Positions 1,385 through 26,338 of a stretch of DNA of 32,000 bases are shown here, one piece after another. Source of the stretch: Halobacteriovoraceae bacterium (GTDB lineage: Bacteria > Bdellovibrionota > Bacteriovoracia > Bacteriovoracales > Bacteriovoracaceae); contig PAMZ01000005.1 in NCBI GenBank assembly GCA_002707495.1, forward strand, positions 246,971-278,970, given 5' to 3'. A program made the position numbers and the translations under genes. The notes beneath the pieces are model-generated. The model was not told the origin of the DNA, did not search any database, and saw only the letters and a program-made list of their open reading frames with translations. Each line of letters starts with the position of its first letter. The stretch's first letter is position 1.

Positions 1385-1387
1385 TAG

Positions 1388-2692: not shown

Positions 2693-2701
2693 ATTTTTTT
2701 C

Positions 2702-3790: not shown

Positions 3791-3859
3791 AACTTGACCT
3801 TTCTAAATTAATGTTTATTTAAGCTGCTAGATTAAAGAATATGTAAGGCATTATGTCTA

Positions 3860-4837: not shown

Positions 4838-5001
4838 TTCTAAGCCTTACAACTTAAACTTCCAAGAGACCACACTAAACCATTTAGCCATTCTTGAATA
4901 GGAATGCTTTTTCTCTGCACCGCTCCATCAAGACAACAGTATCGTCGACTTAAGTTAAAAAATAAGGTTCAATAGAATCAAAAAATAAACGGACACAATT
5001 T

Positions 5002-8113: not shown

Positions 8114-8128
8114 GTTAGTCTTTATTAT

Positions 8129-10151: not shown

Positions 10152-11908
10152 GTTTTAATCCCTTTCTTTTTCTCCCATATCGCCACGATAAATAAGCGCC
10201 AGTAGAACATTCGGTAATTTTCATAAGATATTTCTTTTTTAAATAGAAATAATTCATTCAAGAGATTGGAGGATTTAATGAGTTGATTCATTGTAGATTC
10301 ATTCTCATTAATCCAAGTCTTTTCTGGTGAAGCGAAACCTATCTTATCTGTTCTTAAGTTTATTCCTGTTTTGGTGTATTTACCAAGTATCTCTCGAAGG
10401 GGACTTTTTGTGAACGCGCCGTTAATCTTTTGATTAACGTCTAAGCTCAATCCTTTTTCGACTAGCTCAAAATCAAGAAAAGGTAGTCTCGTTTCAATTG
10501 AAAAATACATCGAGTTCCTATCTTCATATCGGAGCAGACTAGCTAAACTCCCCGTAAGGATGTCGTAGTTCGAGAATTTCTTTGTTTTCCAAAAAAACAT
10601 CTTTTTTTGTTCAGACTTAAATGTTTTTTTAACTTTTAAAGTCTCAAACATTTTTAATATTAGGATGATTTTCCTAAAGTGAGCTGAGGCTAATAGCTTC
10701 GCAAATGAGTAAAAGGAATTATTCTTCAAATACCCGCGAACCAGCTTGTATGTTGAAATCCACCTAAACTTAAGCGAGCTTTCCCAAATAGCGCTGATCA
10801 GATATCGAGTATACCCCAAAAAAATCTCATCTGCCCCTTGACCGTCAAGAAGTACTTTTAACCTATTCTCACTTGCCTCTTTCATAACATTAAACTGCAT
10901 TAAGATAGAACTACTCAAAAAGGGCTCATCTTGAGTTTCAATTGCAAGTTCAATATCCTCTAAAAAATCTTCTGAAATTGGCTCGATTATTTTTAGGTCT
11001 ATATTATTCTCAAAAGAAATTATTTTTGCGTACTCACTCTCATCACTAGCCTTTTCTGTCGATTTACCATGAATACCAATAAATTTGTCTCCAGAAGGAA
11101 TTTTTTCTCTTGCGAGAATTGCAATCAAAGAGCTATCTATTCCTCCACTTAAGCAGGTTCCTATCGGAACGTCAGAGCGCAACCTGAGAGTAATTGATTT
11201 TTGTAATAACTCTTCAACGCTTTTTGTAGAACTCCTTTCACTCATCAGTTTATAATAATACTTAGACGTAAAGTCTTTCTTTTCAGCATCTAGGATAAGA
11301 AAGCTTCCTGGTGATAAGCTATTAATATTTTTGTAGAAGGTTTCTGAGTCGTAATCGACAAGACTGTTTACGATGAAATTGTAAACTTTATCATAATTTA
11401 CATCTTGAGTTTGGGAAAATATTTCAAATTGTTTTAATTCCGATCCAGCTAAGAATAAATCTTCATCTTGATAAAAGAACAACGGTTTGATTCCATAGCG
11501 ATCTCTAGAGAGTAAAACCTCATGTGATTCCTTATTAAAAATAACTAGAGCCCACATTCCATTAAACTTAGAAAAACATTCGCTCTTCCAATGCTGATAG
11601 GCACGAAGAACGACTTCTGTATCAGAGCTTGTTTTAAAAGTATAACCACAGTCCTCAAGCTCTTTCCTCAGCTCCCTATAATTATATATCTCACCATTAT
11701 AAGACATGACATATTCATCAAGTACAAAAGGTTGGTTTGATCGCTCATCCAAGTCAATTATAGAAAGTCTAGTATGCCCTAGAGCTAAAATATCATTCTG
11801 AAAAACCCCCTGTGCGTCTGGTCCCCGGTGGATGACTTTAGCATTCATTTGCCCAATCTTATCCAAGGAGTTTTTATCATTACTAACTATTAGTGATATT
11901 CCACACAT
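10148..11908 (-). CDS. Asparagine synthase (glutamine-hydrolysing) family amidotransferase
   Basis: The MCGI N-terminus supplies the Cys2 nucleophile of class-II glutamine amidotransferases. The PP-loop CLSGGIDSS is present. The ORF is 586 aa and sits inside a glycan locus. Confidence 0.85.
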   Translation of the reverse strand: MCGISLIVSNDKNSLDKIGQMNAKVIHRGPDAQGVFQNDILALGHTRLSIIDLDERSNQPFVLDEYVMSYNGEIYNYRELRKELEDCGYTFKTSSDTEVVLRAYQHWKSECFSKFNGMWALVIFNKESHEVLLSRDRYGIKPLFFYQDEDLFLAGSELKQFEIFSQTQDVNYDKVYNFIVNSLVDYDSETFYKNINSLSPGSFLILDAEKKDFTSKYYYKLMSERSSTKSVEELLQKSITLRLRSDVPIGTCLSGGIDSSLIAILAREKIPSGDKFIGIHGKSTEKASDESEYAKIISFENNIDLKIIEPISEDFLEDIELAIETQDEPFLSSSILMQFNVMKEASENRLKVLLDGQGADEIFLGYTRYLISAIWESSLKFRWISTYKLVRGYLKNNSFYSFAKLLASAHFRKIILILKMFETLKVKKTFKSEQKKMFFWKTKKFSNYDILTGSLASLLRYEDRNSMYFSIETRLPFLDFELVEKGLSLDVNQKINGAFTKSPLREILGKYTKTGINLRTDKIGFASPEKTWINENESTMNQLIKSSNLLNELFLFKKEISYENYRMFYWRLFIVAIWEKKKGIKT

Positions 11909-11973
11909 TTCAATTTATTCCTATTTAAATTCAAAGTAGACAGTCTCAATCTCTTTTTGGGACATACGGGTTC

Positions 11974-11987
11974 TTTTCATATGAAAA
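11974..11987. promoter_or_regulatory. Perfect 14-bp palindrome TTTTCATATGAAAA in the 148-nt gap upstream of the asnB-like gene; possible operator
   Basis: Read directly; the sequence is self-complementary. On the minus strand it abuts a TTGAGG-N17-TAAAGT promoter-like element. Confidence 0.3.
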
Positions 11988-12015
11988 CTTTATGACAGTT
12001 AATTTAAAACCTCAA
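11987..12015 (-). promoter_or_regulatory. Candidate sigma70-type promoter (TTGAGG at 12015..12010, 17-nt spacer, TAAAGT at 11992..11987)
   Basis: This is a hand match to the -35/-10 consensus in the only sizeable intergenic gap upstream of the asnB-like/GT4 operon. AT-rich DNA yields many such matches. Confidence 0.25.
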
Positions 12016-12056
12016 ATTTTTCAAAGCTTTATCAGTTTCAATTTTTCGAATCTTAT

Positions 12057-12803
12057 TTATCTCGAGGCAAAGAAATGAGGATTTAAAACATTTTCTTTAT
12101 TATATTCTAAAGCCTCTTTAGTTCCCCACTTTAATATCTTAGCGCCGCTAGCTTCCAAGATTGCCTGCGCGGCGGCAGTATCCCACTCAGAAGTAGGTCC
12201 AAGTCTTGGGTAGTAATCAGCTGAACCGTCAGCAATCATGCACATCTTAAGAGAGCTTCCAACGCGCTTAATCTCCACTGTCCCATATTTTGATTTTAAC
12301 GACTCCAGGTGATCAAGGGTAGCCTCATTTAAATGTGAGTTACTGGCAACCATCGTAAAGGTTTCAGTTTCTTCACAAGGAAGCTTAGTTTCAACTCCCT
12401 CTTTTACTCTAAAAGAGGACCCTTTATCTGTGAAATACAAAAGATCTTTGGCGGGAGCATAGATAATCCCCTCAACCATTCTTCCAGCCTTCCATAAACC
12501 TATATTGACCGTAAACTCTCCATTGCGTTTGATAAATTCTTTAGTTCCATCAATGGGGTCGACGATAAAACACTGATCCCATTTTTTCCTCTCATCATAA
12601 GGCAGAATTTTTGACTCCTCTGAAAGAATCGGAATTTCAGAATAAAGGATTTTTAACTCTTCAATAATAACTTTGTTGGCAGCTTTATCAGCTAAAGTGA
12701 TGGGACTTTGATCGGCCTTGAGCTCTACTCCAAAATCCTCTTTAGCATAGATCTTCAAGATCTCAACGCCGGCTTTTCTTACTGTAGTTATTAGCTCTCT
12801 CAT
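12057..12803 (-). CDS. cysQ: 3'(2'),5'-bisphosphate nucleotidase (CysQ, inositol monophosphatase superfamily)
   Basis: The segments LSEES, WDQCFIVDPIDGTKEFI and SEWDTAAAQAILEASG are present. The ORF is 248 aa. Confidence 0.8.
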   Translation of the reverse strand: MRELITTVRKAGVEILKIYAKEDFGVELKADQSPITLADKAANKVIIEELKILYSEIPILSEESKILPYDERKKWDQCFIVDPIDGTKEFIKRNGEFTVNIGLWKAGRMVEGIIYAPAKDLLYFTDKGSSFRVKEGVETKLPCEETETFTMVASNSHLNEATLDHLESLKSKYGTVEIKRVGSSLKMCMIADGSADYYPRLGPTSEWDTAAAQAILEASGAKILKWGTKEALEYNKENVLNPHFFASR

Positions 12804-12806
12804 AAC

Positions 12807-13778
12807 CTAGAGTTGAATTCCTTTATAAAAGTCTAAATTGTCTTGGTAATGCTTAAGACAAGTGTCAATTCCGTGCTCGAAGTTTATTTGAGGCTGCCAA
12901 GCAAGTAGCCTTTTAGCTTTTTCAATATTTGCCCAAGTCTCTTTCATATCGGCAAGACTCATCGGATGGTTTTTGACCTTGGCTTTCTTTCCAAAGCCAG
13001 AGCTTAAAAGTTCAATCATTTGGTTAATAGGGATAGGATTGTTTCCTCCACCTAGATTTATAATTTCATAACCAAGAGGCTTCATTGCGGCTATTGTTCC
13101 TCTGGCGATATCATCCACATGGGTAAAATCTCTCGCCTGAGTGCCATCACCGTTAAGTTGAATGACAGAACCTTCATCAATCCACTTCATAAACCTAAGT
13201 TGCGCCATGTCAGGTCTTGAAGTCGGTCCATACACTGTAAAGTAACGCACAATACTCACATCAATTCCATAGAGGTGATGATAAGTGTAGCACATAGTTT
13301 CAGCCGATTTTTTTGTTGAAGCATAGGGAGAGATAGGCTCACTCACATCTAAATCTTCCGTAAAGGGCATCGGCTTTCCTGCATAAAGAGAACTCGTAGA
13401 TGCCAATAGAAATTTTGATACTTTATAATCTCTTGCAAGGTTTAAGAGATTTAAATTTCCAAGTGAGTTAGTCGTAACATACACCTCGGGGTGTTCTTGA
13501 CTATAACGGACTCCAGCTCTCGCAGCCAGATTTAAAATGACATCAAAAGAATGTGCTTTAAAAACCGTCTCTAAGTCTTCTTTATTTTCGATGTCCATTT
13601 TATAAAAATGAAAGCCAGATCGATCTTCAAGGTTTTTGAGACGAAAATTTTTTAGATTGACGTCATAATAATCATTAATATTATCGATCCCAACGACTTC
13701 ATGCCCTTGATCCAATAACATCTCGCAAGTTCGATTCGCAATGAAACCGGCCACACCAGTTAAAAGGATTTTACTCAT
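12807..13778 (-). CDS. NAD-dependent nucleotide-sugar epimerase (extended SDR; UDP-glucuronate 4-epimerase-like)
   Basis: It has TGVAGFIA, the YASTK (YxxxK) motif, and RYFTVYGPTSRPDMA and RDFTHVDDI, which resemble the UDP-GlcA 4-epimerase subgroup. The exact substrate is inferred. Confidence 0.75.
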   Translation of the reverse strand: MSKILLTGVAGFIANRTCEMLLDQGHEVVGIDNINDYYDVNLKNFRLKNLEDRSGFHFYKMDIENKEDLETVFKAHSFDVILNLAARAGVRYSQEHPEVYVTTNSLGNLNLLNLARDYKVSKFLLASTSSLYAGKPMPFTEDLDVSEPISPYASTKKSAETMCYTYHHLYGIDVSIVRYFTVYGPTSRPDMAQLRFMKWIDEGSVIQLNGDGTQARDFTHVDDIARGTIAAMKPLGYEIINLGGGNNPIPINQMIELLSSGFGKKAKVKNHPMSLADMKETWANIEKAKRLLAWQPQINFEHGIDTCLKHYQDNLDFYKGIQL

Positions 13779-15028
13779 AACTCAAATCTCCCCGTGACTT
13801 TTGAATAGGTATAGCGCTCTAGAATATATTCAAAGTCTTCCATCTTTTTGATGGGTATAAAAAAACTCTCCCGCTCCTTAGAATCCAAATTCAATAGTCT
13901 TATCAAAGGTTGATTCAATTTCTCGCGAAAATACTTATCTAAATTCAACATGACTGAAGCAATGGCCCCTTCTAATTGAATAAATTTTTTACCATCTTGA
14001 ATCTTTTCATTTTTTATCAAATCTGGGGCAATAATCATCCCAAACTCTTCCAGTGAACAGTCTAGACGTGAAATTAAATCACTCAATACTTTGGTATTAA
14101 GAAGAACGATATTAGTATTAAAAAGACTAAAATCATCTTCATCTCGAAGCCCTATTTCCGCAAAATAATCCAACTGTCCTGCCCGTTCTGCCTGGGCTTT
14201 TTCAATAATAGTTAAATAAGGTGTTGCGTCCTTCACCACTGCAAGTTGTCCACCTTTTTTATCCATGGCCGTTTTGTTAGTCGTTATCATACAAATAGGA
14301 GTTTTAGTCTCTTCCATCCAGCTAAGCATCTTTAAATCAGGAGTGGAGTTTAAATCTTCTCCGTTTCCAATAGCGATAATCTCTGGCTCAATAATAGGCT
14401 CTTGGAAAAGCTTCATGAGTATTTGAAAACCGAGGAACCCATGACCTCCTGGTGCAAGCCGTTCAAAACTTGTTTTTCCTGTCTCATCTATCGTTGGCAT
14501 TTTATACTGAATTATTGAAGGGCGAATAAAATCTAGTCCTAAGTTAAGCTTTTCAACTACCTCTTTAGTTTGCCTATTCACCAAATTTTGAAGAGTGACT
14601 TTTTTGAGCTTTGGGTTTTGATTGAGTATTTTGACTTGCTCTATCTGAAGCTCGGCCAATGATTTTCCTTTAACAAAAAGGTCTGTACCTTTAGCTCCTA
14701 ATTTTTTTCTGCCAGTATGTTTTTCAAGATGCTCCGCTCGTTCAACACTACTACCAATTCCTGCATGCATCTTAATTAAAACAAGTTCAGAACTGAGTTC
14801 CTTTTCTTCAGACAAATCTGCACATTGCTTAACTGGCATAAGTTCTTTTTCAGCTAAGATGGCATAAGGAAAAACTTTGGAGTTTGGATTATTCTTGGGG
14901 TGGAAAATTGAAATCTCGGATTGCGCCTCTGATTGCCTTTGAAATTGCTTAAGCAGAGCTTCGAAATAAATTCTATTTACCTCATCAGCTTCGGCTTCAA
15001 AGTATTGTTTTAATTGATCAATAGACAT
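13775..15028 (-). CDS. UDPGP-family (eukaryotic-type UTP--sugar-1-phosphate uridylyltransferase-like) nucleotidyltransferase
   Basis: LIKMHAGIGSSVE aligns with the KLNGGLGTSMG loop, and APGGHGF with PPGHGD. The ORF is 417 aa and overlaps the downstream epimerase by 4 nt. Confidence 0.55.
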   Translation of the reverse strand: MSIDQLKQYFEAEADEVNRIYFEALLKQFQRQSEAQSEISIFHPKNNPNSKVFPYAILAEKELMPVKQCADLSEEKELSSELVLIKMHAGIGSSVERAEHLEKHTGRKKLGAKGTDLFVKGKSLAELQIEQVKILNQNPKLKKVTLQNLVNRQTKEVVEKLNLGLDFIRPSIIQYKMPTIDETGKTSFERLAPGGHGFLGFQILMKLFQEPIIEPEIIAIGNGEDLNSTPDLKMLSWMEETKTPICMITTNKTAMDKKGGQLAVVKDATPYLTIIEKAQAERAGQLDYFAEIGLRDEDDFSLFNTNIVLLNTKVLSDLISRLDCSLEEFGMIIAPDLIKNEKIQDGKKFIQLEGAIASVMLNLDKYFREKLNQPLIRLLNLDSKERESFFIPIKKMEDFEYILERYTYSKVTGRFEL

Positions 15029-15126
15029 AGCGGCAGTCTAGCGATTCCTAACGAGCTAATAAAGCTGCGTTGCAGAACTTACCTGAGTTATTTACTTACA
15101 AGGCTTCATCGGCTAGGCTCTTGCCC

Positions 15127-15585
15127 ATGAAAACAACCTTATTTTTATCGATCCTTTTAGTTTCTTTTTCTTCCTTTGCACTGACCTTTGAAGTCACAGA
15201 GATTTGTGAAGACAAACCCCTTGTGAGTGCAGAGATACCAGTTCTCACTTTGACTAATGTCCTAGAATTTTCAAAATACCATTTAAAAAACTTGGCGATT
15301 CCACACACTATTAATGAAAACGGAATCAGCTCGATATTAGATACTCCAGTGGGATATGACGCTTATGAATTCGTAAACTATAACCACATGAGAGTCTATG
15401 GTTGGTGCTATGAGGTCAATGGAGTCCAGCCAAACTTAGTTGCTTCTGAATATATTTTAGATCCAGAGACTCAAGATCATATTAGATGGTTTTATGGATA
15501 TGCTGAAGTCGTAGAAGGGACTTGGATTTACTATTGCAAGCCTGTCTATGAAACCAGACAAGCTTTTGCGTGTTCAATGAACTAA
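15127..15585 (+). CDS. Small secreted protein, DUF4430-like (transcobalamin beta-domain-like fold?)
   Basis: A signal peptide MKTTLFLSILLVSFSSFALT begins at the in-frame ATG at 15127; the track ORF begins at TTG 15070. YGWCYEVNGVQPNLVASEYIL...DHIRWFYGY resembles the GWxYxVNG...DxIxWxY pattern of DUF4430. Confidence 0.45.
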   Translation: MKTTLFLSILLVSFSSFALTFEVTEICEDKPLVSAEIPVLTLTNVLEFSKYHLKNLAIPHTINENGISSILDTPVGYDAYEFVNYNHMRVYGWCYEVNGVQPNLVASEYILDPETQDHIRWFYGYAEVVEGTWIYYCKPVYETRQAFACSMN

Positions 15586-15592
15586 AAAAAAC

Positions 15593-16531
15593 TTAGATAT
15601 CATAACGGTGGATAATACCCACTAACTGGTCATTTTCGACGACCAAAATTGCCGTCACCTTTTTCTCTTGCATCATTGCTTCAGCTTTAACCAACATTTC
15701 ACTGGACCCAATCGTAAGTGGCGACTTAGATCCAAACTGTGAAGCCCTAAATTGCAAGGCTTTTTCTTTTTCAGTTTTTAATAATCTTCTAATATCACCA
15801 TCAGTAATGACTGACTTAATCTTTTCATTTTCAATGACAACTCCAAGACCAAGTCTTCCATTTGAGATCACCGAGATGATCTCATCAAACGGCATATCGG
15901 AACTAAGTATGGGAAGAGACTCTTTTTTCATCACGTCAGACACTTTGGTCAAAAGCTTTCGTCCCAAGCTTCCACCTGGATGAAAACGAGCAAAATTTTC
16001 TGCTTTAAAGTCTCTTGCCTTCATGAGTGCCACCGCCAATGCATCACCCAAAGCCAAGGTCGCAGTGGTTGAAGTTGTAGGCGCTAGCTCAAGCGGACAA
16101 GCTTCTTTACTAATTCCTGCATCAATAAAAAAATCACTATGTTTTGCAAGTGTAGAATTTTCTTTTCCCACCATCGCAATGATCTTATTTCCGTTATCCT
16201 TCAAAAAAGGAAGTAGTTTTATAATCTCCTCTGTCTCACCTGAATTTGAAATAGCTAGGACAGTGTCGCCCGAGTGAATCATTCCAAGATCACCATGATA
16301 AGCTTCGCCAGGATGCAAGAAAAATGAGCGTGTACCTGTCGAGGCAAGAGTTGCACTTATTTTTTTACCAATAAGGCCCGATTTTCCCATTCCAGTTACA
16401 ACACAGCGACCTGAGGCATTCAAAATACATTGGATAACTTCATTAAATGAAGGAGTTATTTTATCTGATACTTCTTTAAGTCCGCCAATTTCAATTTGAA
16501 GGACATTTTTTGCTATTTCTTGATAGTTCAT
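15593..16531 (-). CDS. kdsD: Arabinose-5-phosphate isomerase (KdsD/KpsF; SIS plus tandem CBS domains)
   Basis: VVTGMGKSGLIGKKISATLASTG and ISNSGETEE mark the SIS domain. C-terminal CBS repeats are present. The ORF is 312 aa. Confidence 0.85.
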   Translation of the reverse strand: MNYQEIAKNVLQIEIGGLKEVSDKITPSFNEVIQCILNASGRCVVTGMGKSGLIGKKISATLASTGTRSFFLHPGEAYHGDLGMIHSGDTVLAISNSGETEEIIKLLPFLKDNGNKIIAMVGKENSTLAKHSDFFIDAGISKEACPLELAPTTSTTATLALGDALAVALMKARDFKAENFARFHPGGSLGRKLLTKVSDVMKKESLPILSSDMPFDEIISVISNGRLGLGVVIENEKIKSVITDGDIRRLLKTEKEKALQFRASQFGSKSPLTIGSSEMLVKAEAMMQEKKVTAILVVENDQLVGIIHRYDI

Positions 16532-16537
16532 AGACCC

Positions 16538-16547
16538 ATGATATCAT
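16538..16547. promoter_or_regulatory. 10-bp perfect palindrome ATGATATCAT centred in the 22-nt divergent kdsD/pepM gap
   Basis: Read directly. The whole gap between the two start codons is 16532..16553. Confidence 0.25.
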
Positions 16548-16553
16548 AAGATT

Positions 16554-17411
16554 ATGCAACTGCCAGAGAACCGTAGACCTTTGTTGAAGCAGGCCCTTCA
16601 ACGAGGGGACTTTATCCGTGCTATTGAGGCGCACAATGGTTTAAGTGCCGGCATCATTGAAAGTTTAAAAAATCAAGACTCCCATTTTAATGCTATCTGG
16701 ATAAGCTCTCTGACAGAGTCAGTAAGTCGCGGGTTTTGCGATAATGAATATTTAAATCTTCCCAGTCGATTTCAAACTATAAATGAAGTCATGGGTAATA
16801 CTAGCCTTCCGCTGATCTATGATGCTGATTCTGGCTCCTATGCTGAACATCTAACTCGAACAGTGATCGATCTTGAGCGTCTAGGAGTTTCCGCCATTGT
16901 CATCGAAGATAAACAAGGTTTTAAGGTGAATTCTTTGACAGAAAAAGATGACCTTCAAAAGCAACTAGACCCCCATGAGTTTAGTGAAAAAATAAAAATT
17001 GCTCAAAAAGCGAAATCTACTTCTGACTTTCTCGTTATAGCTCGCATAGAAACATTTCCATTAGGTGGAAAACTTGAAGACGCACTTTTAAGAGCAAAAA
17101 TGTATGCTAAAGCTGGAGCCGACATCATAATGATTCACTCCAAAGAATCTGAATTCACACAGGTTAGAGAATTTGCAACTCAATACAAAGAAAGTAAACC
17201 TTTAATGATTGTTCCCTCTACCTATTTCAACTATACCGAAGAAATGGCAAAAGAAGATGGAGTTCAAATGGTGATCTATGCGAATCAACTTCTGCGCTCT
17301 GCCTATCAAGCAATGTCTGGATGTGCCCAAGAAATTTTATCCGAGGGACATGCAAAATCAATTCAATCAAAATTAGCTTCTGTAAAAGATATTCTTAATC
17401 TTAAGGCTTAA
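16554..17411 (+). CDS. pepM: Phosphoenolpyruvate mutase (PEP phosphomutase)
   Basis: The protein belongs to the ICL/PEP-mutase superfamily. It carries the PepM-diagnostic EDK-X5-NS motif as EDKQGFKVNS (nt 16905..16934), together with IEAHNGLSA and IYDADSGS. It is followed directly by ppd. Confidence 0.85.
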   Translation: MQLPENRRPLLKQALQRGDFIRAIEAHNGLSAGIIESLKNQDSHFNAIWISSLTESVSRGFCDNEYLNLPSRFQTINEVMGNTSLPLIYDADSGSYAEHLTRTVIDLERLGVSAIVIEDKQGFKVNSLTEKDDLQKQLDPHEFSEKIKIAQKAKSTSDFLVIARIETFPLGGKLEDALLRAKMYAKAGADIIMIHSKESEFTQVREFATQYKESKPLMIVPSTYFNYTEEMAKEDGVQMVIYANQLLRSAYQAMSGCAQEILSEGHAKSIQSKLASVKDILNLKA

Positions 17412-17412
17412 A

Positions 17413-18468
17413 ATGATTGATCCTAAAGATTTTGTTACTTACCTCAAAACACAGGGACTGGAATATTTTACAGGAGTACCAGACTCTATCTTAAAAAATT
17501 TTATTAACGAACTTCCAGAGACTCACCTTAAGGCCAATGAAGGTTCTGCTATTGCAGCTGCTATAGGTTATCATTTAGCGACAAAAAATATCGCAACCGT
17601 CTACATGCAAAACTCAGGCTTAGGAAATGCCATCAATCCTCTAGCGACAATGGCCTTAGTTTATAAAATTCCTGTTCTTCTTTTTATCGGATGGAGAGGT
17701 GAAGATAAAGATGAGCCTCAACATGAAGTCATGGGAAAAGCCAGTGCAAAAATGCTTGAAGCTATCGGAATAGAACATGAGGTACTCTCAATTGAAGAAA
17801 ATAAGTCAAAGTCTCAAATAGTGAATGCTTATAATCGAATGCACAATCAACAGTCTCCTTATGCTTTTTTGGTTCGAAAAAATACCTTTAAATCCACACA
17901 GCAAATATCAAATATTCAAGGTACACATCAAAGATCTAGTGTGATCAAAGAGCTGATTTCAAATCTTAAGCCGGGAGATAAAATTTTTGCCACTGCTGGC
18001 TATACTGGAAGAGAATTGTATGCGCTAGCCAAGAAAATGCAAAAACTCGAGCATATTTTTTTAGGCACGGGGGCCATGGGACATATCAGTCAATTGGCCC
18101 TGGAGTTTGCACTGAACTCAGGAAAAAATACTTATTGCCTAGATGGAGATGGAAGCGCGATTATGCACTTAGGAAACCTGCAGGAGATGAGCCAAAAAGC
18201 GCCAAAAAACTTAAAATATATCGTTTTCAATAATAGCTCCCATCAGTCAGTGGGACTAAATGAAAGTCTTTGGAAGCCGGGTGAAATATCGAGAGCCCTC
18301 AAAAGTTTTGGGGCTGAGCCTGTTGACGCTTTGGATAAACTTATTCAGTCTAAGAGTTTTTCAGTTTGGGAAGCTATTTGTGGCCAGGAAGTCATGGACA
18401 GTTTACCAAGACCAGAAGAAAATCCTATTGATCTAAAAAAGCTATTTTTAAATGATAAAATTAAATGA
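17413..18468 (+). CDS. ppd: Phosphonopyruvate decarboxylase (TPP-dependent)
   Basis: YFTGVPDSILK is at the N-terminus. The TPP motif is LDGDGSAIMHLGNL...IVFNNSSHQS. The gene starts 1 nt after the pepM stop. Confidence 0.8.
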   Translation: MIDPKDFVTYLKTQGLEYFTGVPDSILKNFINELPETHLKANEGSAIAAAIGYHLATKNIATVYMQNSGLGNAINPLATMALVYKIPVLLFIGWRGEDKDEPQHEVMGKASAKMLEAIGIEHEVLSIEENKSKSQIVNAYNRMHNQQSPYAFLVRKNTFKSTQQISNIQGTHQRSSVIKELISNLKPGDKIFATAGYTGRELYALAKKMQKLEHIFLGTGAMGHISQLALEFALNSGKNTYCLDGDGSAIMHLGNLQEMSQKAPKNLKYIVFNNSSHQSVGLNESLWKPGEISRALKSFGAEPVDALDKLIQSKSFSVWEAICGQEVMDSLPRPEENPIDLKKLFLNDKIK

Positions 18469-19498
18469 ATTAAAACAAATTCTCAATCAAAAAAAAGTCT
18501 TAGTTTTTACGAATAAAAACTCCTTCTCATTGTATAAAAACTATTTTGAGTCAGAATTTAATGCTTCGATTACCTATTACAAAGACTTTCAACTCAACCC
18601 TAAACTTTCAGATGTCATTGAGTGTTTCAAAAAAATTAACATAAATGACTTTGATGCCATTATAGGTATCGGTGGAGGAAGTCCCATGGACTTTTCTAAG
18701 GCTGTCACTTATTTTTCTCATTTTGAAATTTCTGAATATAATGATTTTCTTAAACACCTTAAATCTCCCAAACAATTTGAATCAAATCTTCCTCTTTACC
18801 TAATTCCTACAACGAGTGGAAGTGGTAGCGAGGGGAATAGGTTCTCTGTTATCTATGACGAAGCAGAAAAGTATTCACTTGTATCTAGTGCCATTTATCC
18901 GAAAAATATTGTCTTAGACTCTAAGTTTGTGGAGTTTCTTCCTAAAAGGGTAACTGCTTATACCGCTATCGATGCTATCACACACGCACTTGAATCTTTC
19001 TGGGCCAATGGATCGACAATCGATTCTCAAAAAATTTCACTAAAAGCTCTCAATATCCTTGTCCCAAATATAAAAGAAGTTGTTCATAATCCGACTGCAG
19101 AACTTAGAGAAAAAATAATGTTTGGGGCGTATTTAGCTGGAAAAGCGATAGATACTGCTATGACAACGGCCCCCCATGCCTTTAGTTATTATTTAACCAC
19201 TGAACACGGTATTCCCCACGGACAAGCCGTTGCTATAAATCTTGGCTACTTTATTGAGATAAATGGAACAGCTAGAGACCTAACACCAATTCATGAAGTT
19301 TTCCAAGTAAAAACCGATAATGAGTTAAAACTAGCATGGTTTAAATTATTAAAAGACATAGAGATTTATGAAAATCCTCTAGATATTGTCGATGATACAC
19401 AAGCTTTTTTCGATGCCGTTAATTCCGAAAGACTTGGAAATAATCCCTACCCGCTTAAAAAATCAGAGTTTGAAAAATTATTTACCGGTGACAATTAA
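18452..19498 (+). CDS. Group III iron-containing alcohol dehydrogenase; candidate phosphonoacetaldehyde reductase (PhpC/FomC-like)
   Basis: IIGIGGGSPMDFSKAV is present. Metal-ligand regions are AIDAITHALESFW and APHAFSYYLTTEHGIPHGQAVA. The gene overlaps ppd by 17 nt. Function is assigned from context. Confidence 0.65.
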   Translation: MIKLNELKQILNQKKVLVFTNKNSFSLYKNYFESEFNASITYYKDFQLNPKLSDVIECFKKININDFDAIIGIGGGSPMDFSKAVTYFSHFEISEYNDFLKHLKSPKQFESNLPLYLIPTTSGSGSEGNRFSVIYDEAEKYSLVSSAIYPKNIVLDSKFVEFLPKRVTAYTAIDAITHALESFWANGSTIDSQKISLKALNILVPNIKEVVHNPTAELREKIMFGAYLAGKAIDTAMTTAPHAFSYYLTTEHGIPHGQAVAINLGYFIEINGTARDLTPIHEVFQVKTDNELKLAWFKLLKDIEIYENPLDIVDDTQAFFDAVNSERLGNNPYPLKKSEFEKLFTGDN

Positions 19499-20365
19499 AA
19501 AGCTGGAAGACTTTTTCACTTCAAGCAGATAAGTTCCACTCTCTACCGCTAAGGCACAATCCAAGGGGTTTAGATCTTCCATTTCTCCTTCTAAGAGAAC
19601 TATCGAATCCCCAGCATTTAGATTTATCTCTAATTCAGTTTTAGTAAAGTTATTGAATAACTCTGCTCTAAAGTCTCGGTGATTGATTAATGAGACTATA
19701 CCTGCAATATCGAATAAATCTCTCTTTTGAGAATGAAGTAACTGGTCATTCTTAATAGGATCAAAAACCAAAACATCCATCGCTTTTTCTAAATGAAGCT
19801 CACGAGGTTTTCCGTCAAAGCCCAATCGATTCCAATCCCATACTCTATAAGTTACACTACTATTTTGTTGAACCTCACAAAGTGTCACACCCTTCCCAAT
19901 AGCATGAACGGTTCCTGGGGGAAGTTTAAAAAAATCTCCTCTACTTACAGGGATAAAATTTAAAAATTGATCACACGAAAGTCCAGACTTAGCTGCGTTT
20001 AAAAACTCTTTTTTAGTAACACCTTTTTTAAAACCTAGATAAATTCCAGCTTCTGGCTCATGATCCAAAATAAGCCAACATTCAGTTTTGCCTAAACTAT
20101 TTTCAAACTCTTTTGCATAAGCGTCATCCGGGTGAACTTGAATAGATAAATTACTGGCGGTGTCGATGTACTTAACTATATAACTCAGATTTAAATTTAT
20201 AGGCTTATTCGTATCAGCATTAAGGCTTTTACCCTCGGCAAGTGAGCTTACCTCCCAGGTTTCCCCGATCGGATTTTTAGCTGATATATTTCGAAGTGAC
20301 TTAAGCTTATCACCACCCCAAATTTTTTCATTTATAAATGGTTTTAATTTACAAATTTTAGGCAT
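19478..20365 (-). CDS. manA: Type I mannose-6-phosphate isomerase (cupin)
   Basis: The segments EKIWGG, LSIQVHPDDAYA, GKTECWLIL, GTVHAIGKG and VTYRVWDWNR are present. The ORF is 295 aa. Confidence 0.8.
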   Translation of the reverse strand: MPKICKLKPFINEKIWGGDKLKSLRNISAKNPIGETWEVSSLAEGKSLNADTNKPINLNLSYIVKYIDTASNLSIQVHPDDAYAKEFENSLGKTECWLILDHEPEAGIYLGFKKGVTKKEFLNAAKSGLSCDQFLNFIPVSRGDFFKLPPGTVHAIGKGVTLCEVQQNSSVTYRVWDWNRLGFDGKPRELHLEKAMDVLVFDPIKNDQLLHSQKRDLFDIAGIVSLINHRDFRAELFNNFTKTELEINLNAGDSIVLLEGEMEDLNPLDCALAVESGTYLLEVKKSSSFLIVTGK

Positions 20366-20453
20366 TTAAAAATCTTAGCAAAAGCCAGATCAAAGTAAAG
20401 ATTCATTGCTAAAAAACTAAATAAATAATACACTAACTCCCTTAGGAGTAACT

Positions 20454-23400
20454 ATGTCTAAAGTTTTAGTTCTCGATGGTGCCATGGGTACTATGATTCA
20501 ACAATATAAATTAACTGAAGAAGATTATAGGGGAGAGAGATTTAAAGATTATCCTTCTTCCCTTCAAGGAAATAACGATCTTCTCACTCTTACAAAGCCC
20601 GAAGTGATTTTAGAAATTCATCGCAAATATCTTGAAGCCGGTGCGGATATATTAGAAACGAATACGTTCTCTTGTACTTCAGTTGCGATGGCAGATTATA
20701 ATATGGAAGAGCTTGTCTACGAGCTTAACTTTGAAGCCGCCAAACTTGCAAGAGCTGCCTGCGATGAATTCAGTACACCTGAAAAACCGCGCTTTGTTGC
20801 CGGCTCCATTGGGCCAACCAATAAAACAGCAAGTATCTCTCCCGATGTTAACGATCCAGGTTTTAGGGCCATTAGCTTTGATGAATTAGTCGAGGCTTAT
20901 ATCGAACAAGTTAAGGCCCTCGTAGAAGGTGGCGTGGATTTTCTTTTAGTTGAAACTGTCTTTGATACTTTAAATGCGAAAGCTGCACTTTTTGCCATAA
21001 GTAGCTATTTTGAAAGTGTAAAAAAAGAACCCTTACCGGTTATGATGTCTGGCACGATTACCGATGCCTCAGGAAGAACTTTATCCGGCCAAACCATTGA
21101 AGCTTTTCTCTACTCCGTTTCTCACTACCCGTTAATGAGTATCGGAGTCAATTGTGCATTAGGTGCAGACATGATGAGACCCTACTTAAAGGTTCTCTCT
21201 GAAAAAGCTCCTTTTAAAGTTTCTCTTTATCCCAATGCGGGACTTCCCAATGAATTTGGTGAATATGATCAAACACCAAAGGAGATGGCTGATATTTTGG
21301 AGGAATACCTAAAAGAAGGTCATATAAATATTGTGGGTGGCTGTTGTGGAACCACCGATAAACATATTGCCGAAATAGCCAAGCGAGTTGATAAATACCA
21401 GGCAAGAAAGACTCCTGAAAAGGATCATATGCCTCACTACTCTGGGTTGGAACCACTTACGATTTTTGAGGGAAGCAATTTCATTAACGTAGGTGAGCGG
21501 ACAAATATTGCGGGCTCACTTAAATTCAAACGCCTTATTCAAGAAGAGAATTATGAAGCAGCTCTTGATGTCGCCAAGGACCAAGTAGAAAACGGCGCAC
21601 AAATTATTGATGTTAATATGGATGATGGGATGATTGACGGAAAAGCCGCCATGGTGAGATTTTTAAATCTTATCGCAGCGGAACCTGATATAGCACGAAT
21701 CCCTATTATGATTGATTCTTCCAAGTGGGAAATTATTGAAGCTGGTCTTAAATGCGTCCAAGGAAAGGCAGTCGTCAACTCTATCTCTCTAAAAGAAGGA
21801 GAAGAGGAATTTTTAAGACAAGCTGAGCTTATTAGAAAATATGGAGCTTCTGTCGTTGTCATGGCCTTTGATGAAGTCGGACAAGCCGACACATATGAAA
21901 GGCGAATTGCGATATGTGAGAGGGCCTACAAGCTCTTAACTGAGAAGATTCATTTCCCTCCTGAAGATATTATTTTTGATCCTAATATCTTGGCCATTGC
22001 AACGGGAATTGAAGAGCATAATAATTATGGTGTTGATTTTATCAATGCCACAAAATGGATTAAAGAAAACCTCCCTTATGCTAAGGTCAGTGGAGGTGTT
22101 TCCAATTTATCTTTTTCCTTTCGAGGAAATAATCCGGTCAGAGAGGCCATCCACTCAGTTTTTCTCTACCATGCCATCAAAGCAGGAATGGACATGGGAA
22201 TTGTCAATCCTGGACTTTTAGAAGTTTACGATGAGATCCCTTTGGATCTTCGAGAAAGAGTTGAAGCCGTTGTCTTGAATAAAAACGATGGCGCTACAGA
22301 CGAACTTTTGGAGTTTGCTCAAACCGTTGAGGGGACAAAAAAAGTTAAAACCGTTGATCTTAGCTGGCGAGAGGTAGATGTAGAAAAAAGACTTTCTCAT
22401 GCGCTCATAAAAGGAATTACTGACTTCATTGAAGAAGATGTAGAGGAAGCTCGTCAAAAGCTATCTAAACCTTTGGAGGTCATCGAGGGTCCACTCATGG
22501 CTGGAATGAATGTCGTCGGAGAGCTTTTTGGAGAAGGAAAGATGTTTCTTCCTCAGGTCGTAAAATCAGCCAGAGTTATGAAAAAAGCTGTCGGTTATCT
22601 ACAGCCATTTCTAGAGGCTGAAAAAGAATCTGGACTTGGACATAATGGGAAGATCCTCATGGCAACTGTTAAAGGCGATGTTCACGATATTGGTAAAAAT
22701 ATTGTTTCCGTTGTTCTTCGTTGTAATAATTTTGAGGTCATCGATATGGGAGTTATGATTCCCTGTGAAGATATACTAAAGAGGGCCCAAGAGGAAGAAG
22801 TCGATATCATAGGACTTTCAGGTCTGATCACCCCAAGTCTAGATGAAATGGTCAATGTGGCTAAAGAAATGGAAAGATTAAATATCAATAAACCTCTTCT
22901 TATTGGTGGAGCAACTACGAGTAGAATTCACACCGCGGTCAAAATTTCTCCACAAACGGAAAGTCCTGTTGTTCACGTGGCGGACGCATCAAAATCGGTT
23001 CCTGTGGCCCAAATGTTACTGACAAAAAGAGAAACTATTGAGAGTGAAATTAAAGCTCAATACCAAAGGCTTAGAGAAAACCATCAAAATAGAAGGCAAA
23101 ATCCTTTAGTAAGCTTTAACAGTGCCATAGAAAATAAAGCAATATTGGATTTTTCTCAGATTAAAAAACCAAGCTCGCTTGGTATAAAAGACTTCGACAG
23201 TATTACAGTTGGTGACTTAATACCCTATATCGACTGGACTCCCTTTTTTAGTGCCTGGAGACTCAAAGGAGCTTATCCAAAGATTCTAAAAGATGAAAAA
23301 TTCGGAGAAGAGGCGACGAAGCTCTTTCATGAAGCGCAAGAGTATTTAGAACAAATGAAAAAAGAAGGGCTTGCCATTAGAGCTAGAATTGGAATCTTTC

Positions 23401-24056
23401 CTGCTAGAAGTTTAGGGGAAGATATTGAAGTGTATCACCCTCAAACCAATGAATCGATAGAAACTCTATGCATGCTTCGAAACCAAAGAAAAATGGAGGA
23501 AAATCCTAATCGAAGTTTGGCCGATTTCATCTCTCCAAATGCTGGGGAAGATTTTATTGGTGCCTTTATTGTCACCTCAGGGGAAAATCTTGATAAAGTT
23601 CTCAAATTATACCCGGACGATGATTATGCAGAAATCATGCTCAAAGTTCTAGCAGATAGACTGGCTGAAGCCAGTGCTGAGTTTATGCATCAAAAGATTC
23701 GTACTGAGATTTGGGGTTATTCACCAGCTGAAGATTTAAGCAATGAGGAATTAATTCAGGAAAAATATAAAGGAATCAGACCTGCTCCCGGATATTCAGC
23801 CTGCCCGGATCATTCTGAGAAGAAAAAGCTGTTTAAGCTTTTAAAGGCTGACGATCAATTTCCCGTAAGTCTTACGGAATCCTGCGCTATGACCCCAGTC
23901 TCAAGTGTAAGTGGATGGTATTTTGCCCATCCAGAGGCCAGATATTTCAATGTAGGAAATGTGACAAAAGACCAAGTTATGTCTTATTCTAAAAGAAAAG
24001 GATTATCATTATCTGAAACTGAAAAATGGCTTCGCTCCATTCTAGATTATGAATAA
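20454..24056 (+). CDS. metH: Cobalamin-dependent methionine synthase
   Basis: The ORF is 1200 aa. The Hcy domain has VGGCCGTT (Zn site). The B12 domain has GDVHDIGKN (DxHxxG). A C-terminal AdoMet reactivation domain is present. A strong SD (AGGAGT) lies 5 nt upstream of the ATG. Confidence 0.95.
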
Positions 24057-24072
24057 TCAAATTAGGTAATAT

Positions 24073-25029
24073 ATGAAAGTAATTGACCATATTAATTCAA
24101 GTAAAGGTGAGACCTTATTTTCTTTTGAAATTCTTCCTCCCATGAAAGGCCAGGGTATCTCGGGTCTATTCAATCAGGTTGAACCCTTAATGGAATTTAA
24201 ACCTAAATTTATTAATGTTACCTATCATAGAGAAGAGTACATATATAAAAAGAGGGAGCATGGACTCTTAGAAAAAGTCTCCACGCGAAAAAGACCTGGA
24301 ACCGTCGGTATTTGTGCCGCTCTTATGAATAAGTTTCATGTTGATACAGTACCTCATATTATTTGTGGAGGATTTACTAAGGAAGAAACAGAAAATGCAC
24401 TTATAGATCTCGACTTTCTTGGAATAGATAATGTTCTTGCCCTTCGCGGAGATGCTATTAAATCAGAAGCTCGCTTTGTTCCAACCCCAGGAGGTCATGA
24501 ATACGCAAGTGATCTCATCGAGCAGATTCAAACGATGAATTCGGGAAAGTATCTTAACTCTGAAGTGGAAAATGCTTTTCCCACTCAATTTTGTATCGGG
24601 GTATCAGGATATCCAGAAAAGCATTTTGAAGCTCCTAATTTTGAAACGGATCTAAAGTATCTAAAGAAAAAAGTGGAGTTAGGTGCTGAATATATCGTCA
24701 CTCAAATGTTTTTTGATAATAAAAAATTTTTTAATTTCGTAGAAAAGTGCCGAGAAGCAGAAATAAATGTTCCCATCATCCCGGGACTAAAACCTGTCTC
24801 AACCATGAGGCAAACAACCGTTCTTCCCAGTATTTTTCATATAGACCTTCCAGTGGATCTTATGAATGAAATAGAAAGTGCCAAAGACAATCAAGCTGTT
24901 AGAGAGATTGGGGTTGAGTGGGCGATTGCACAGTGTAAAGAATTAAAAGCAGCTGGAGTTCCTTGCATGCATTTTTACTCTATGGGGAAGTCGGATAATA
25001 TTCAAAAAATAGCAAGGGAGATCTTTTGA
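24073..25029 (+). CDS. metF: 5,10-methylenetetrahydrofolate reductase
   Basis: The length (318 aa) and overall pattern fit the MTHFR family (FSFEILPP, VTYH, ALRGD, ITQMFFD). It starts 16 nt after metH. Confidence 0.9.
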   Translation: MKVIDHINSSKGETLFSFEILPPMKGQGISGLFNQVEPLMEFKPKFINVTYHREEYIYKKREHGLLEKVSTRKRPGTVGICAALMNKFHVDTVPHIICGGFTKEETENALIDLDFLGIDNVLALRGDAIKSEARFVPTPGGHEYASDLIEQIQTMNSGKYLNSEVENAFPTQFCIGVSGYPEKHFEAPNFETDLKYLKKKVELGAEYIVTQMFFDNKKFFNFVEKCREAEINVPIIPGLKPVSTMRQTTVLPSIFHIDLPVDLMNEIESAKDNQAVREIGVEWAIAQCKELKAAGVPCMHFYSMGKSDNIQKIAREIF

Positions 25030-25757
25030 AACTTCCCTATTCTAAATCTCTTTTGATCATTCCCACATATAATGAAATTGATAATATCGAAAAGATGCTT
25101 TCGACTCTTGAGTCTCTTTATCAGGAGTTAAATATTCTTATCATCGATGATGGATCTCCAGATGGAACTGCTGATATTGTCAAAAAGCATCAAGAGACAA
25201 ACCAAAGACTTCATCTTATTCAAAGAACAGGGAAACTAGGTCTAGGCACTGCTTATATCACCGGTTTTAAGTGGGCCTTGGATAGAGATTTTGAGTTTGT
25301 CTTTGAAATGGATTGTGATTTCTCTCATGACCCAAAAGATATACCTATCTTATTAGAAGCCGCTCAATCAAATGATCTCATCATAGGCTCTCGTTATATA
25401 AATGGAATTCGAATTATAAACTGGCCTTTTAGAAGATTACTTTTATCCTATTGTGCTAGTTTGTATACAAGGATAATAACTGGAATAAAAATACTTGATG
25501 TCACTGGGGGCTTTAAGTGTTTCAATCGATCTGCATTAGAAAGCTTAAATCTTGATCGAGTCTTTTCTAACGGCTACTCTTTTCAGGTGGAGCTCAATTA
25601 CAAAATTTGGTCTAAAGGATTAAGAGTCAAAGAAGTTCCCATTATTTTTACTGAGCGTAGAGATGGACAATCGAAAATGTCCGGCGGAATTGTAAGAGAG
25701 GCTATCTTTGCTGTGATAATGTTAAGAATTCGACGTATATTTGGAACACTTCATTAA
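25026..25757 (+). CDS. GT2 polyprenyl-phosphate glycosyltransferase (Dpm1/Ppm1/ArnC-like)
   Basis: The segments LIIPTYNE, IIDDGSPDGT and EMDCDFSHDP are present. The ORF is 243 aa. The TTG start overlaps the metF stop by 4 nt. Confidence 0.8.
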   Translation: MKLPYSKSLLIIPTYNEIDNIEKMLSTLESLYQELNILIIDDGSPDGTADIVKKHQETNQRLHLIQRTGKLGLGTAYITGFKWALDRDFEFVFEMDCDFSHDPKDIPILLEAAQSNDLIIGSRYINGIRIINWPFRRLLLSYCASLYTRIITGIKILDVTGGFKCFNRSALESLNLDRVFSNGYSFQVELNYKIWSKGLRVKEVPIIFTERRDGQSKMSGGIVREAIFAVIMLRIRRIFGTLH

Positions 25758-26338
25758 TGATTTTAGAAAGTTTAAACTCTCTCGATACTCAGTTATTTTT
25801 ATTTCTTAATAGTTTTCATAACCCTATTTTTGATAAAATCATGCTTTTTCTTTCCTATAACAAAGTCCTCATGGGAATCCTTGTACTATTTCTCTTCACC
25901 CAAACAATTTTGAAATTTAGAAAATATTCCCTTGCCGCTATTATTCTAGCGATTATAGCTTTTGGACTGAGCGATAGTATTTCAAGTCGAATTCTAAAAC
26001 CTGGCTTTGAAAGACTCAGACCCTGTCATCAGGAAGCTCTAAAAGATAAAGTTCATTTAGCCGGAAAAAATTGTTGGGGTGGAAAGTATGGCTTTGTCAG
26101 CTCACACGCTTCAAATTCATTCGCACTGGCGAGTTTTTTCTTCTTCTTATTAGGTGGAAACTGGTACGGACTCTTATTTATTCACGCAGGCTTAGTCTCT
26201 TATTCGAGAATTTATTTAGCCAAGCATTTTCCCGGCGATATAATCGCCGGAGCAATACTGGGTATATTATTAGGATATCTTTGCTTTAAAATATGGAGCT
26301 TTTTAAAAACTAAATACTTTCTCTCTGATTTAAAATAA
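25757..26338 (+). CDS. PAP2-family membrane phosphatase (lipid phosphate / undecaprenyl-PP / lipid A phosphatase type)
   Basis: All three PAP2 motifs are present: KPGFERLRP (KX6RP), SSH, and SRIYLAKHFPGD (SRX5HX3D). Four to five TM helices are visible. The start overlaps the GT2 stop (TAATG). Confidence 0.8.
   Translation: MILESLNSLDTQLFLFLNSFHNPIFDKIMLFLSYNKVLMGILVLFLFTQTILKFRKYSLAAIILAIIAFGLSDSISSRILKPGFERLRPCHQEALKDKVHLAGKNCWGGKYGFVSSHASNSFALASFFFFLLGGNWYGLLFIHAGLVSYSRIYLAKHFPGDIIAGAILGILLGYLCFKIWSFLKTKYFLSDLK

Follow-up and report, generated by a model that had tools for sequence, protein, structure and literature searches.

In Streptomyces, the early steps of fosfomycin biosynthesis are catalyzed by Fom1, a fusion of a cytidylyltransferase (CyTase) domain with phosphoenolpyruvate (PEP) mutase (PepM or Ppm), Fom2, a phosphonopyruvate decarboxylase (Ppd), and FomC, an iron-dependent alcohol dehydrogenase (Fe-ADH); the dehydrogenases PhpC and DhpG function in phosphinothricin and dehydrophos biosynthesis, respectively. 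Enzymes of the PhpC type reduce phosphonoacetaldehyde (PnAA) to 2-hydroxyethylphosphonate (2-HEP or HEP) (PMC8942020). The combination Ppm-Ppd-PhpC, the 'HEP branch point', accounts for 8.5% of the catalogued ppm neighborhoods (Li & Horsman 2022, PMC8942020), and in the TARA metagenomes, phpC reaches 64-76% of the abundance of pepM (Lockwood et al. 2022, PMC9381506). A 32,000-nucleotide stretch (hereinafter, the window) of contig PAMZ01000005.1, from a Tara Oceans metagenome-assembled genome of Halobacteriovoraceae, contains a compact set of three genes, denoted here pepM, ppd and adh. This operon probably converts PEP, via phosphonopyruvate (PnPy) and PnAA, to 2-HEP, with the activities and the product predicted from the gene sequences. 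In a literature search for the word stem 'Halobacteriovor' along with 'phosphonate', no paper dealing with the biosynthesis of phosphonates in Halobacteriovoraceae was found.

The window cassette resembles the marine pepM-aepY(ppd)-phpC(pdh) clusters in the three enzymes and their order, the lack of a 2-aminoethylphosphonate (AEP) transaminase (AEPT), the proximity of polysaccharide genes and the marine planktonic source (PMC8942020, PMC9381506). It differs from Ppm-Ppd-PhpC clusters in that its PepM is a stand-alone protein, that no nucleotidyltransferase, LicD-type or arylsulfatase-type transferase is encoded nearby, and that the host belongs to Halobacteriovoraceae. With the early part of the fosfomycin pathway, the cassette shares the predicted PEP to PnPy to PnAA to HEP chemistry and the ADH subfamily, but unlike the fosfomycin and phosphinothricin systems, it includes a PepM without the CyTase domain and no counterparts of Fom3, Fom4, PhpD or tailoring genes. 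FomC, DhpG and PhpC are similar to each other according to the literature, and the window ADH is predicted to share their subfamily.

The three genes form a tightly packed, translationally coupled operon. The ppd gene starts 1 nt past the stop codon of pepM on the same strand, and the start of adh overlaps the end of ppd by 17 nt; no terminator-like site was found on the plus strand between 16554 and 19498, and the GC content over the cassette (0.36-0.40) is the same as in the rest of the window, without anomaly. The original prediction, made from the nucleotide sequence alone, had given the span of the three open reading frames (ORFs), the 1-nt gap, the 17-nt overlap and the position of the PepM signature exactly to the base (Table 1). 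Six proteins encoded in the window were checked and are exact matches to GenBank entries. The names phosphoenolpyruvate mutase and phosphonopyruvate decarboxylase are already attached to the first two products there, and both the ADH and the product of the downstream cupin gene are labelled 'hypothetical protein'.

The product of the first gene matches the isocitrate lyase/PEP mutase domain PF13714 (171 bits, residues 15-262). Among the NCBIfam hidden Markov models (HMMs), TIGR02320 (PEP_mutase) ranks first with 297.5 bits, 2.2 times the score of the next family; the models for phosphonopyruvate hydrolase, methylisocitrate lyase and carboxy-PEP mutase score 133, 97 and 41 bits, respectively. 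In a phmmer alignment with the Mytilus PepM (PDB entry 1m1b), residues D58, D85, D87, E114, K120, N122, S123, R159 and H190, which we take to be the catalytic and Mg-site positions, are all kept, and G47 is replaced by Ser. The motif EDK-X5-NS sets Ppm apart from other members of the superfamily (Rice 2019, PMC6697681), and the EDK..NS pattern is present in 47/47 aligned PepM-family sequences. In a neighbor-joining (NJ) tree, the window protein falls in a small clade made up of stand-alone proteins, 285-291 aa in length (bootstrap 91%). Beside this clade stands a very large one of ~433-aa fusions in which PepM is preceded by a PF01467 cytidylyltransferase domain, as in Fom1; the window protein contains neither an extension nor such a domain. 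These features support the identification of the first ORF as a true PEP mutase, in terms of predicted activity. The second gene product is recognized by TIGR03297 with 296.4 bits, compared to 80 and 57 bits for the alpha and beta models of sulfopyruvate decarboxylase. Both thiamine pyrophosphate (TPP) enzyme domains, TPP_enzyme_N (PF02776) and TPP_enzyme_C (PF02775), are matched, the motif YFTGVPDS is located near the N-terminus and GDG-X25-NN at residue 245, and the top PDB match is the split phosphonopyruvate decarboxylase 9iz3.

The dehydrogenase step settles whether HEP or AEP is made. The protein matches PF00465 (107 bits) and PF25137 (77 bits), and its top NCBIfam model is TIGR03405, phosphonate-associated Fe-ADH (Phn_Fe-ADH/PsrA; 153 bits); for all three gene products, the family scores lie far above chance. 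The comparison set consisted of 80 Fe-ADH loci among the matches listed in searches of species-representative genomes with generic Fe-ADH patterns, together with loci of the Halobacteriovoraceae family, and each locus was scored for PepM and Ppd in the 10-kb flanks; the counts that follow apply to the matches listed. The alignment-based Fe-ADH scan had no Halobacteriovoraceae genomes among its matches listed, and a single-sequence scan of genome contigs found nothing. In the NJ tree of 82 Fe-ADHs, all 16 pepM-linked proteins and the window family fall within one clade of 24, and none of the 58 proteins outside this clade is pepM-linked. The top-scoring relatives from outside Halobacteriovoraceae, namely those of loci L009 (Actinomycetota), L011 (Elusimicrobia) and L012 (Salinivirgaceae), are all encoded in the order pepM-ppd-adh.

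The window ADH contains the nicotinamide adenine dinucleotide (NAD) site GGGS at residue 74, the metal ligands D174, H178, H242 and H256, and the signatures of the clade, S142, W184, T238, T239, Y246, T249 and the C-terminal VNxxRLxNNP with R327. Both Y246 and T238 are present in 24/24 members of the clade, compared to 15/58 and 14/58, respectively, of the proteins outside it, and R327 is found in 17 of the 18 clade sequences that align at this column. In PhpC, the metal ligands are Asp191, His195, His260 and His274, and HEP is contacted by Lys157, Thr256, Tyr264 (Phe in sulfoacetaldehyde reductase) and Arg349 (Piazza et al. 2026, PMC13576164). The equivalents of these sites in the window protein, mapped by spacing rather than by alignment to PhpC, are D174/H178/H242/H256 and K140/T238/Y246/R327. 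Homologues with 32-39% identity are named phosphonoacetaldehyde reductase by NCBI. Because of its place in the pepM-linked clade, the metal ligands and phosphonate-binding residues, and the names of its homologues, the third gene is assigned to the PhpC type and is predicted to encode a phosphonoacetaldehyde reductase (EC 1.1.1.309). The adjoining kdsD gene prompted consideration of the ADH as a 3-deoxy-D-manno-octulosonate (Kdo) 8-oxidase (KdnB). The KdnB structure 5k8c scores 47 bits against ~122 for other Fe-ADHs, and the signatures of the PhpC clade are present, so this candidate was rejected.

All three assignments had been made in the original prediction and are supported here: that of a true PEP mutase by the motif, the catalytic residues of 1m1b and the HMM ranking; that of a Ppd with GVPDS and GDG...NN motifs by the two TPP domains and the HMM ranking, with a TIGR03297 score just under the cutoff; and that of a PhpC/FomC/DhpG-type reductase that would yield 2-HEP by the tree placement, the signature residues and the gene order in relatives.

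Table 1. Positions of the pepM-ppd-adh cassette and of adjacent features in the window
Feature	Position	Strand	Details
pepM, stand-alone PEP mutase	16554..17411	+	285 aa; GenBank MAZ47818.1
EDKQGFKVNS, EDK-X5-NS PepM signature	16905..16934	+	PepM residues 118-127
ppd, phosphonopyruvate decarboxylase	17413..18468	+	351 aa; GenBank MAZ47819.1
adh, PhpC-type phosphonoacetaldehyde reductase (predicted), group III Fe/Zn alcohol dehydrogenase	18452..19498	+	348 aa; GenBank MAZ47820.1, CME65_04615
kdsD, arabinose-5-phosphate isomerase	15593..16531	-	TIGR00393 340 bits; context, outside cassette
Short type-I phosphomannose isomerase (PMI, manA-like cupin)	19478..20365	-	PDB 1qwr 121 bits; context, outside cassette
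Candidate operon promoter TTGATA-16-TG-TATCAT	16520..16547	+	sigma-70-like consensus, 10/12 matches

The proposed pathway is assembled from direct observations, namely the order and coupling of the genes, the family assignments, the catalytic and signature residues, and the conservation of the trio in relatives. PepM would isomerize PEP to phosphonopyruvate, Ppd would irreversibly convert the latter to PnAA, thereby pulling the unfavourable equilibrium of the mutase, and the PhpC-type metal-dependent ADH would reduce PnAA, at the expense of NAD(P)H, to 2-HEP. No class-V (PhnW/AEPT-type) aminotransferase was found among the 28 large ORFs of the window that were scanned, as the original prediction had it; the sole aminotransferase among these is a DegT/PseC-type sugar aminotransferase (2702-3790). 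Because an AEP-type aminotransferase is missing in the window, the synthesis of 2-HEP is well supported; an AEP transaminase may nevertheless be encoded elsewhere in the genome.

The block kdsD ... adh, PMI, metH, metF, glycosyltransferase family 2 (GT2), PAP2 is syntenic on contigs that encode ADHs 39-73% identical to that of the window. A stand-alone pepM with ppd is located between kdsD and adh in the window and in loci L004/L005, L006 and L090, the last of which contains an ISNCY transposase (8650-9777) adjoining pepM; L089 carries the same stand-alone pair on a contig that ends just past ppd, with kdsD elsewhere on the contig. In L003 (7581-8882) and L007 (about 7900-9015), the slot is occupied by a CyTase-PepM fusion along with ppd, and this Fom1-type PF01467-PepM architecture is shared by most of the nearest PepM homologues. 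The possibility that pepM and ppd of L007 are pseudogenes was dismissed given that the broken gene calls coincide with scaffold gaps of 100 N. The ADHs of the Halobacteriovoraceae family are monophyletic (bootstrap 80%), and the PepMs of the family are not: those of L003 and L007 fall inside the fused clade, apart from the stand-alone clade.

Several observations weigh against the interpretation of the operon as a 2-HEP pathway. The three proteins score below the cutoffs of the respective family models: PepM is 7% short of the TIGR02320 equivalog cutoff (297.5 vs 319.55 bits), Ppd is under the TIGR03297 cutoff of 312.5, and the ADH is far under that of the narrow TIGR03405 model (423.7). Family-specific HMMs, which had been suggested as a check of the first two genes, rank the expected models at the top for both, with both scores just under the cutoffs. 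The bootstrap support of the PhpC-like clade is only moderate (62%). In L001/L002 and L008, the ADH is kept at the same slot without adjacent pepM-ppd, so that its role need not depend on these genes. Finally, no PF01467 or PF12804 nucleotidyltransferase and no LicD-like or sulfatase/EptA-type transferase was detected in ~42 kb comprising the window and 10 kb to its left. Such nucleotidyltransferases are fused to ~60% of Ppm enzymes and, in about two-thirds of the cases, are encoded no more than five genes away from ppm (Rice et al. 2019, PMC6697681), and the window cassette belongs to the minority of ppm loci that lack one. The shortfall in the PepM score, the close pairwise scores of the window protein with PepM 1m1b (141 bits) and phosphonopyruvate hydrolase 2dua (120 bits), and the position of the hydrolase among actinobacterial PepMs in the NJ tree would all be compatible with the first ORF being another member of the superfamily, that is, a phosphonopyruvate hydrolase, a methylisocitrate lyase or a carboxy-PEP mutase. 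We consider this extremely improbable in view of the more than twofold HMM score difference between PepM and hydrolase, the presence of the discriminating Asn of the NS dyad, where 2dua has EDKTFPKDTS, a Thr replacing the Asn (in the same columns, the carboxy-PEP mutase 4iqd reads EDQ...CG), the translational coupling to a gene for the phosphonopyruvate-consuming Ppd, and the location of the protein next to the large CyTase-PepM fusion clade. Because the tree by itself does not separate PepM from the hydrolase, the motif and the HMM scores are decisive here. The persistence of the ADH in loci without nearby pepM-ppd bears on another alternative, namely that the ADH is functionally separate from pepM-ppd, a vertically inherited core gene acting on a different substrate or in the reverse direction (as a HEP dehydrogenase in salvage or catabolism, or in PsrA-like aldehyde detoxification), with PepM-Ppd supplying PnAA to a distant enzyme, such as an AEP transaminase. 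In agreement with this possibility, the ADHs of L001/L002 and L008 are intact and retain every signature residue, show no excess divergence over the ADHs of pepM-bearing relatives whose MetH and KdsD are about equally distant, and fall in two separate subclades (bootstrap 73% and 56%); the family ADHs are monophyletic while the pepM genes at the slot represent two lineages; pepM is absent from 53% of phpC-bearing genomes (PMC9381506); and the degradative PhpC (HEP dehydrogenase) and PsrA of Burkholderia cenocepacia, from the same Fe-ADH subfamily, are precedents for PhpC homologues away from pepM (PMC13576164). Unlike these degradative enzymes, the window ADH is coupled to pepM-ppd, with the 17-nt overlap and no intervening terminator, the order pepM-ppd-adh is identical in distant phyla, and phnX, phnA/phnY and phnW are absent near the ADH in all related loci, which makes a separate function of the ADH improbable.

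Even with the three enzymes acting in succession, 2-HEP, or PnAA, could be only an intermediate, to be converted by the products of other genes to methylphosphonate (MpnS), hydroxymethylphosphonate (HepD) or a small secreted molecule. HEP is an intermediate shared by several pathways (PMC8942020), marine pepM-ppd-pdh clusters often extend to mpnS (PMC9381506), and no gene for activation or transfer of HEP is present locally, all of which would fit. This possibility nonetheless appears unlikely given that no MpnS/HepD-like protein is encoded within ~42 kb and that ocean metagenomes contain far fewer mpnS and hepD genes than phpC genes (PMC9381506). The only cupin nearby, the product of the gene convergent with adh, was considered as a candidate HepD or MpnS and rejected: it matches the Bacillus-type mannose-6-phosphate isomerase 1qwr (Table 1), that is, a type-I phosphomannose isomerase, and is kept in pepM-less loci as well. 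A further alternative is that the phosphonate ends up not on a glycan but in phosphonolipids of the membrane, similar to the sphingophosphonolipids known from a related predator, Bacteriovorax stolpii. A 1-hydroxy-AEP phosphonosphingolipid of Bacteriovorax (ex Bdellovibrio) stolpii is documented in a work cited as reference 40 of PMC8942020, and the window contains no glycan-directed phosphonate transferase. However, as described in the same source, the B. stolpii head group is 1-hydroxy-AEP and the respective cluster is of the AEPT class, whereas here ppd is coupled to a reductase rather than a transaminase; in addition, no CDP-alcohol phosphatidyltransferase or serine palmitoyltransferase was seen in the window scans. 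A lipid destination is, accordingly, doubtful and in our estimate quite unlikely.

Taken across the relatives, the ADH looks like a stable element of the locus, and pepM-ppd like a replaceable module that has been swapped. This pattern is compatible with a broader, speculative and rather unlikely scenario for marine Halobacteriovoraceae, in which the PhpC-type ADH is an inherited fixture at the slot kdsD / adh / PMI / metH, pepM-ppd is strain-variable (absent, stand-alone or Fom1-like fused), and HEP production is a swappable surface or defence trait of these predators; under this scenario, pepM-less strains might make HEP from scavenged, possibly prey-derived, PnAA or AEP.

With 2-HEP as the preferred product, the next step may be its esterification onto a cell-surface macromolecule, and the enzymes that activate HEP, e.g., as its cytidine monophosphate ester (CMP-HEP), and transfer it would be encoded outside the window. 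We give slightly less than an even chance to HEP being esterified onto a surface macromolecule or glycan. Neither a nucleotidyltransferase of the PF01467 or PF12804 kind nor a phosphotransferase was found in the window: in addition to the enzymes listed above, no CDP-alcohol-type phosphotransferase is encoded in the window, and phmmer searches of all window ORFs of at least 40 aa with the CyTase domain of L003, the sulfatase/EptA-type transferase and the DAO-family oxidoreductase as queries found no homologues. HEP is a polysaccharide substituent in the phosphonoglycans of the actinomycetes Glycomyces and Stackebrandtia, as cited in PMC13576164 and PMC8931226; these glycans, together with the methylphosphonate and HEP esters of marine high-molecular-weight dissolved organic phosphorus, are a precedent for HEP on a polysaccharide, and their link to the window is by analogy. 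The Pnt pathway (PntC-Ppm, Ppd, AEPT, LicD-like; PMC6697681) is similar to the window cassette in the combination of PepM and Ppd with adjoining cell-wall glycan genes and in the presumed surface destination, but employs a transaminase in place of the reductase (AEP rather than HEP) and includes PntC and a LicD-like transferase, both absent in the window.

The original prediction had placed the cassette inside a surface-glycan locus and suggested phosphonate-decorated lipopolysaccharide, capsule or exopolysaccharide. The setting is confirmed on one side only: kdsD adjoins the cassette, and the left flank from 446 to 15028 is filled with nucleotide-sugar and glycosyltransferase genes of an O-antigen/capsule-like locus of the ABC-transporter type (a further 10 kb is seen in L091), whereas the right flank consists of PMI, then the housekeeping genes metH and metF, followed by GT2 and PAP2 phosphatase genes. 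A glycan destination would rest on proximity, and the suggested decoration is not well supported, given that no activating or transfer enzymes are encoded in ~42 kb and that the neighbors are kept in relatives without pepM-ppd. In particular, kdsD is next to the slot in relatives with and without pepM-ppd; because the gene order is kept in the latter, the immediate neighbors do not constitute a dedicated phosphonoglycan locus.

This analysis adds a Halobacteriovoraceae lineage to the likely marine producers of HEP. Marine high-molecular-weight dissolved organic phosphorus contains esters of HEP and methylphosphonate as its main phosphonates, as stated in PMC13576164 and PMC8931226, and because of this dominance, each further producer has some ecological relevance. 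The pathway itself is textbook and its class is well catalogued in marine microbes; what is new is the annotation of one gene, a GenBank 'hypothetical protein' upgraded to a predicted PhpC-type phosphonoacetaldehyde reductase, and the strain-to-strain variation of the module. The relatives represent a natural set of strains for studying the role of PhpC in the absence of PepM and the activation of HEP without a Fom1-type CyTase domain.

With respect to its immediate neighbors, pepM is divergent from kdsD, with 22 bp between the two start codons (16532-16553), and adh is convergent with the PMI gene, with the 3' ends overlapping by 21 nt (19478-19498). The candidate promoter (Table 1) is the top-scoring sigma-70-like site in 15000-20600; it is located in the 5'-terminal part of kdsD and stops 7 nt short of the ATG of pepM, so that a pepM mRNA starting from it would be leaderless or nearly so. 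The total number of sigma-70-like sites in 15000-20600 is not above that in shuffled sequence, and the promoter is to be taken as a lead only. Of the 8 related contigs that continue beyond adh, 7, including L001, L003, L004, L006, L007 and L090, keep the convergent adh-PMI pair, regardless of the presence of pepM-ppd; the exception is L008, where a 220-aa ORF is located between the two genes. Farther downstream (20454-26338), the methionine genes metH and metF are directly followed by two envelope genes, one for a polyprenyl-phosphate GT2 of the PpgS/ArnC kind and one for a PAP2 phosphatase. This combination is unusual but stable, with the order metH-metF-GT2-PAP2 found in all seven related contigs reaching that far.

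The genes of the left flank encode an NDP-sugar dehydrogenase, a GFO oxidoreductase, the DegT aminotransferase, hexapeptide acetyltransferases, 2-epimerases and GT4 enzymes, as well as two AsnB-type amidotransferases, a TupA-like ATP-grasp enzyme, an epimerase, a UDPGP-family pyrophosphorylase and CysQ. The enzyme set of window 446-11908 and L091 10949-20939 suggests a 2,3-diamino uronic acid sugar, and the AsnB-type amidotransferases, a WbmS-like protein and the TupA-like ATP-grasp enzyme suggest amidated or amino-acid-decorated uronic acids. CysQ, a 3'-phosphoadenosine 5'-phosphate (PAP) phosphatase (12057-12803, minus strand), is embedded in the glycan genes, and L089 contains an adenosine 5'-phosphosulfate kinase and a second CysQ (1429-2759 and 6419-7165), which hints at glycan sulfation dependent on 3'-phosphoadenosine 5'-phosphosulfate. 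The 417-aa UDPGP-like protein (13775-15028, minus strand; GenBank hypothetical) is the only nucleotidyltransferase near the cassette and is kept upstream of the epimerase in L001 and L089. It matches PF01704 with an E-value of 2e-16 and the plant and yeast UDP-glucose pyrophosphorylase structures with E-values of ~1e-11. Its candidacy as a phosphonate nucleotidyltransferase found no support, given its membership in the eukaryote-type UDP-glucose pyrophosphorylase family and its presence in the pepM-less L001.

An Asp/Glu racemase gene (7351-8113, minus strand) is split into two overlapping frames, with 7586-8113 corresponding to profile positions 1-137 and 7351-7641 to positions 165-209. A run of seven A is found near 7650, and the split, which is identical in the gene calls of L091, is due to a sequencing error or marks the gene as a frameshifted pseudogene. 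Similarity to the cysteate racemase CuyB (92 bits) is also seen in the N-terminal part. Next to kdsD, a 171-aa ORF (15070-15585, plus strand) encodes a protein with a signal-peptide-like N-terminus and only a weak match to DUF4430. Its counterpart in L089 is a 156-aa ORF directly upstream of pepM (192 bits), and it stands where relatives have a ~540-aa homologue of the EptA/EptB-like phosphoethanolamine transferases. Such EptA/EptB/CptA-like (PF00884) transferases are encoded beside kdsD in L001 (7387-9003), which is pepM-less, L003 (649-2262), L004 (249-1829), L007 (911-2548) and L090 (1941-5178), and none is present in the window. A flavin adenine dinucleotide-dependent oxidoreductase of the DAO family is encoded between kdsD and the pepM/ADH slot in L003 (3210-4304) and L008 (8839-9921), and also in L006, L007 and L090, and is likewise missing in the window. 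This oxidoreductase was considered as an aminophosphonate oxidase that would feed the ADH and was rejected, the match to TIGR03329 ('putative aminophosphonate oxidoreductase'), the top NCBIfam hit of the L003 copy, being weak and non-specific (74 bits vs a cutoff of 633) and level with that to glycine oxidase.

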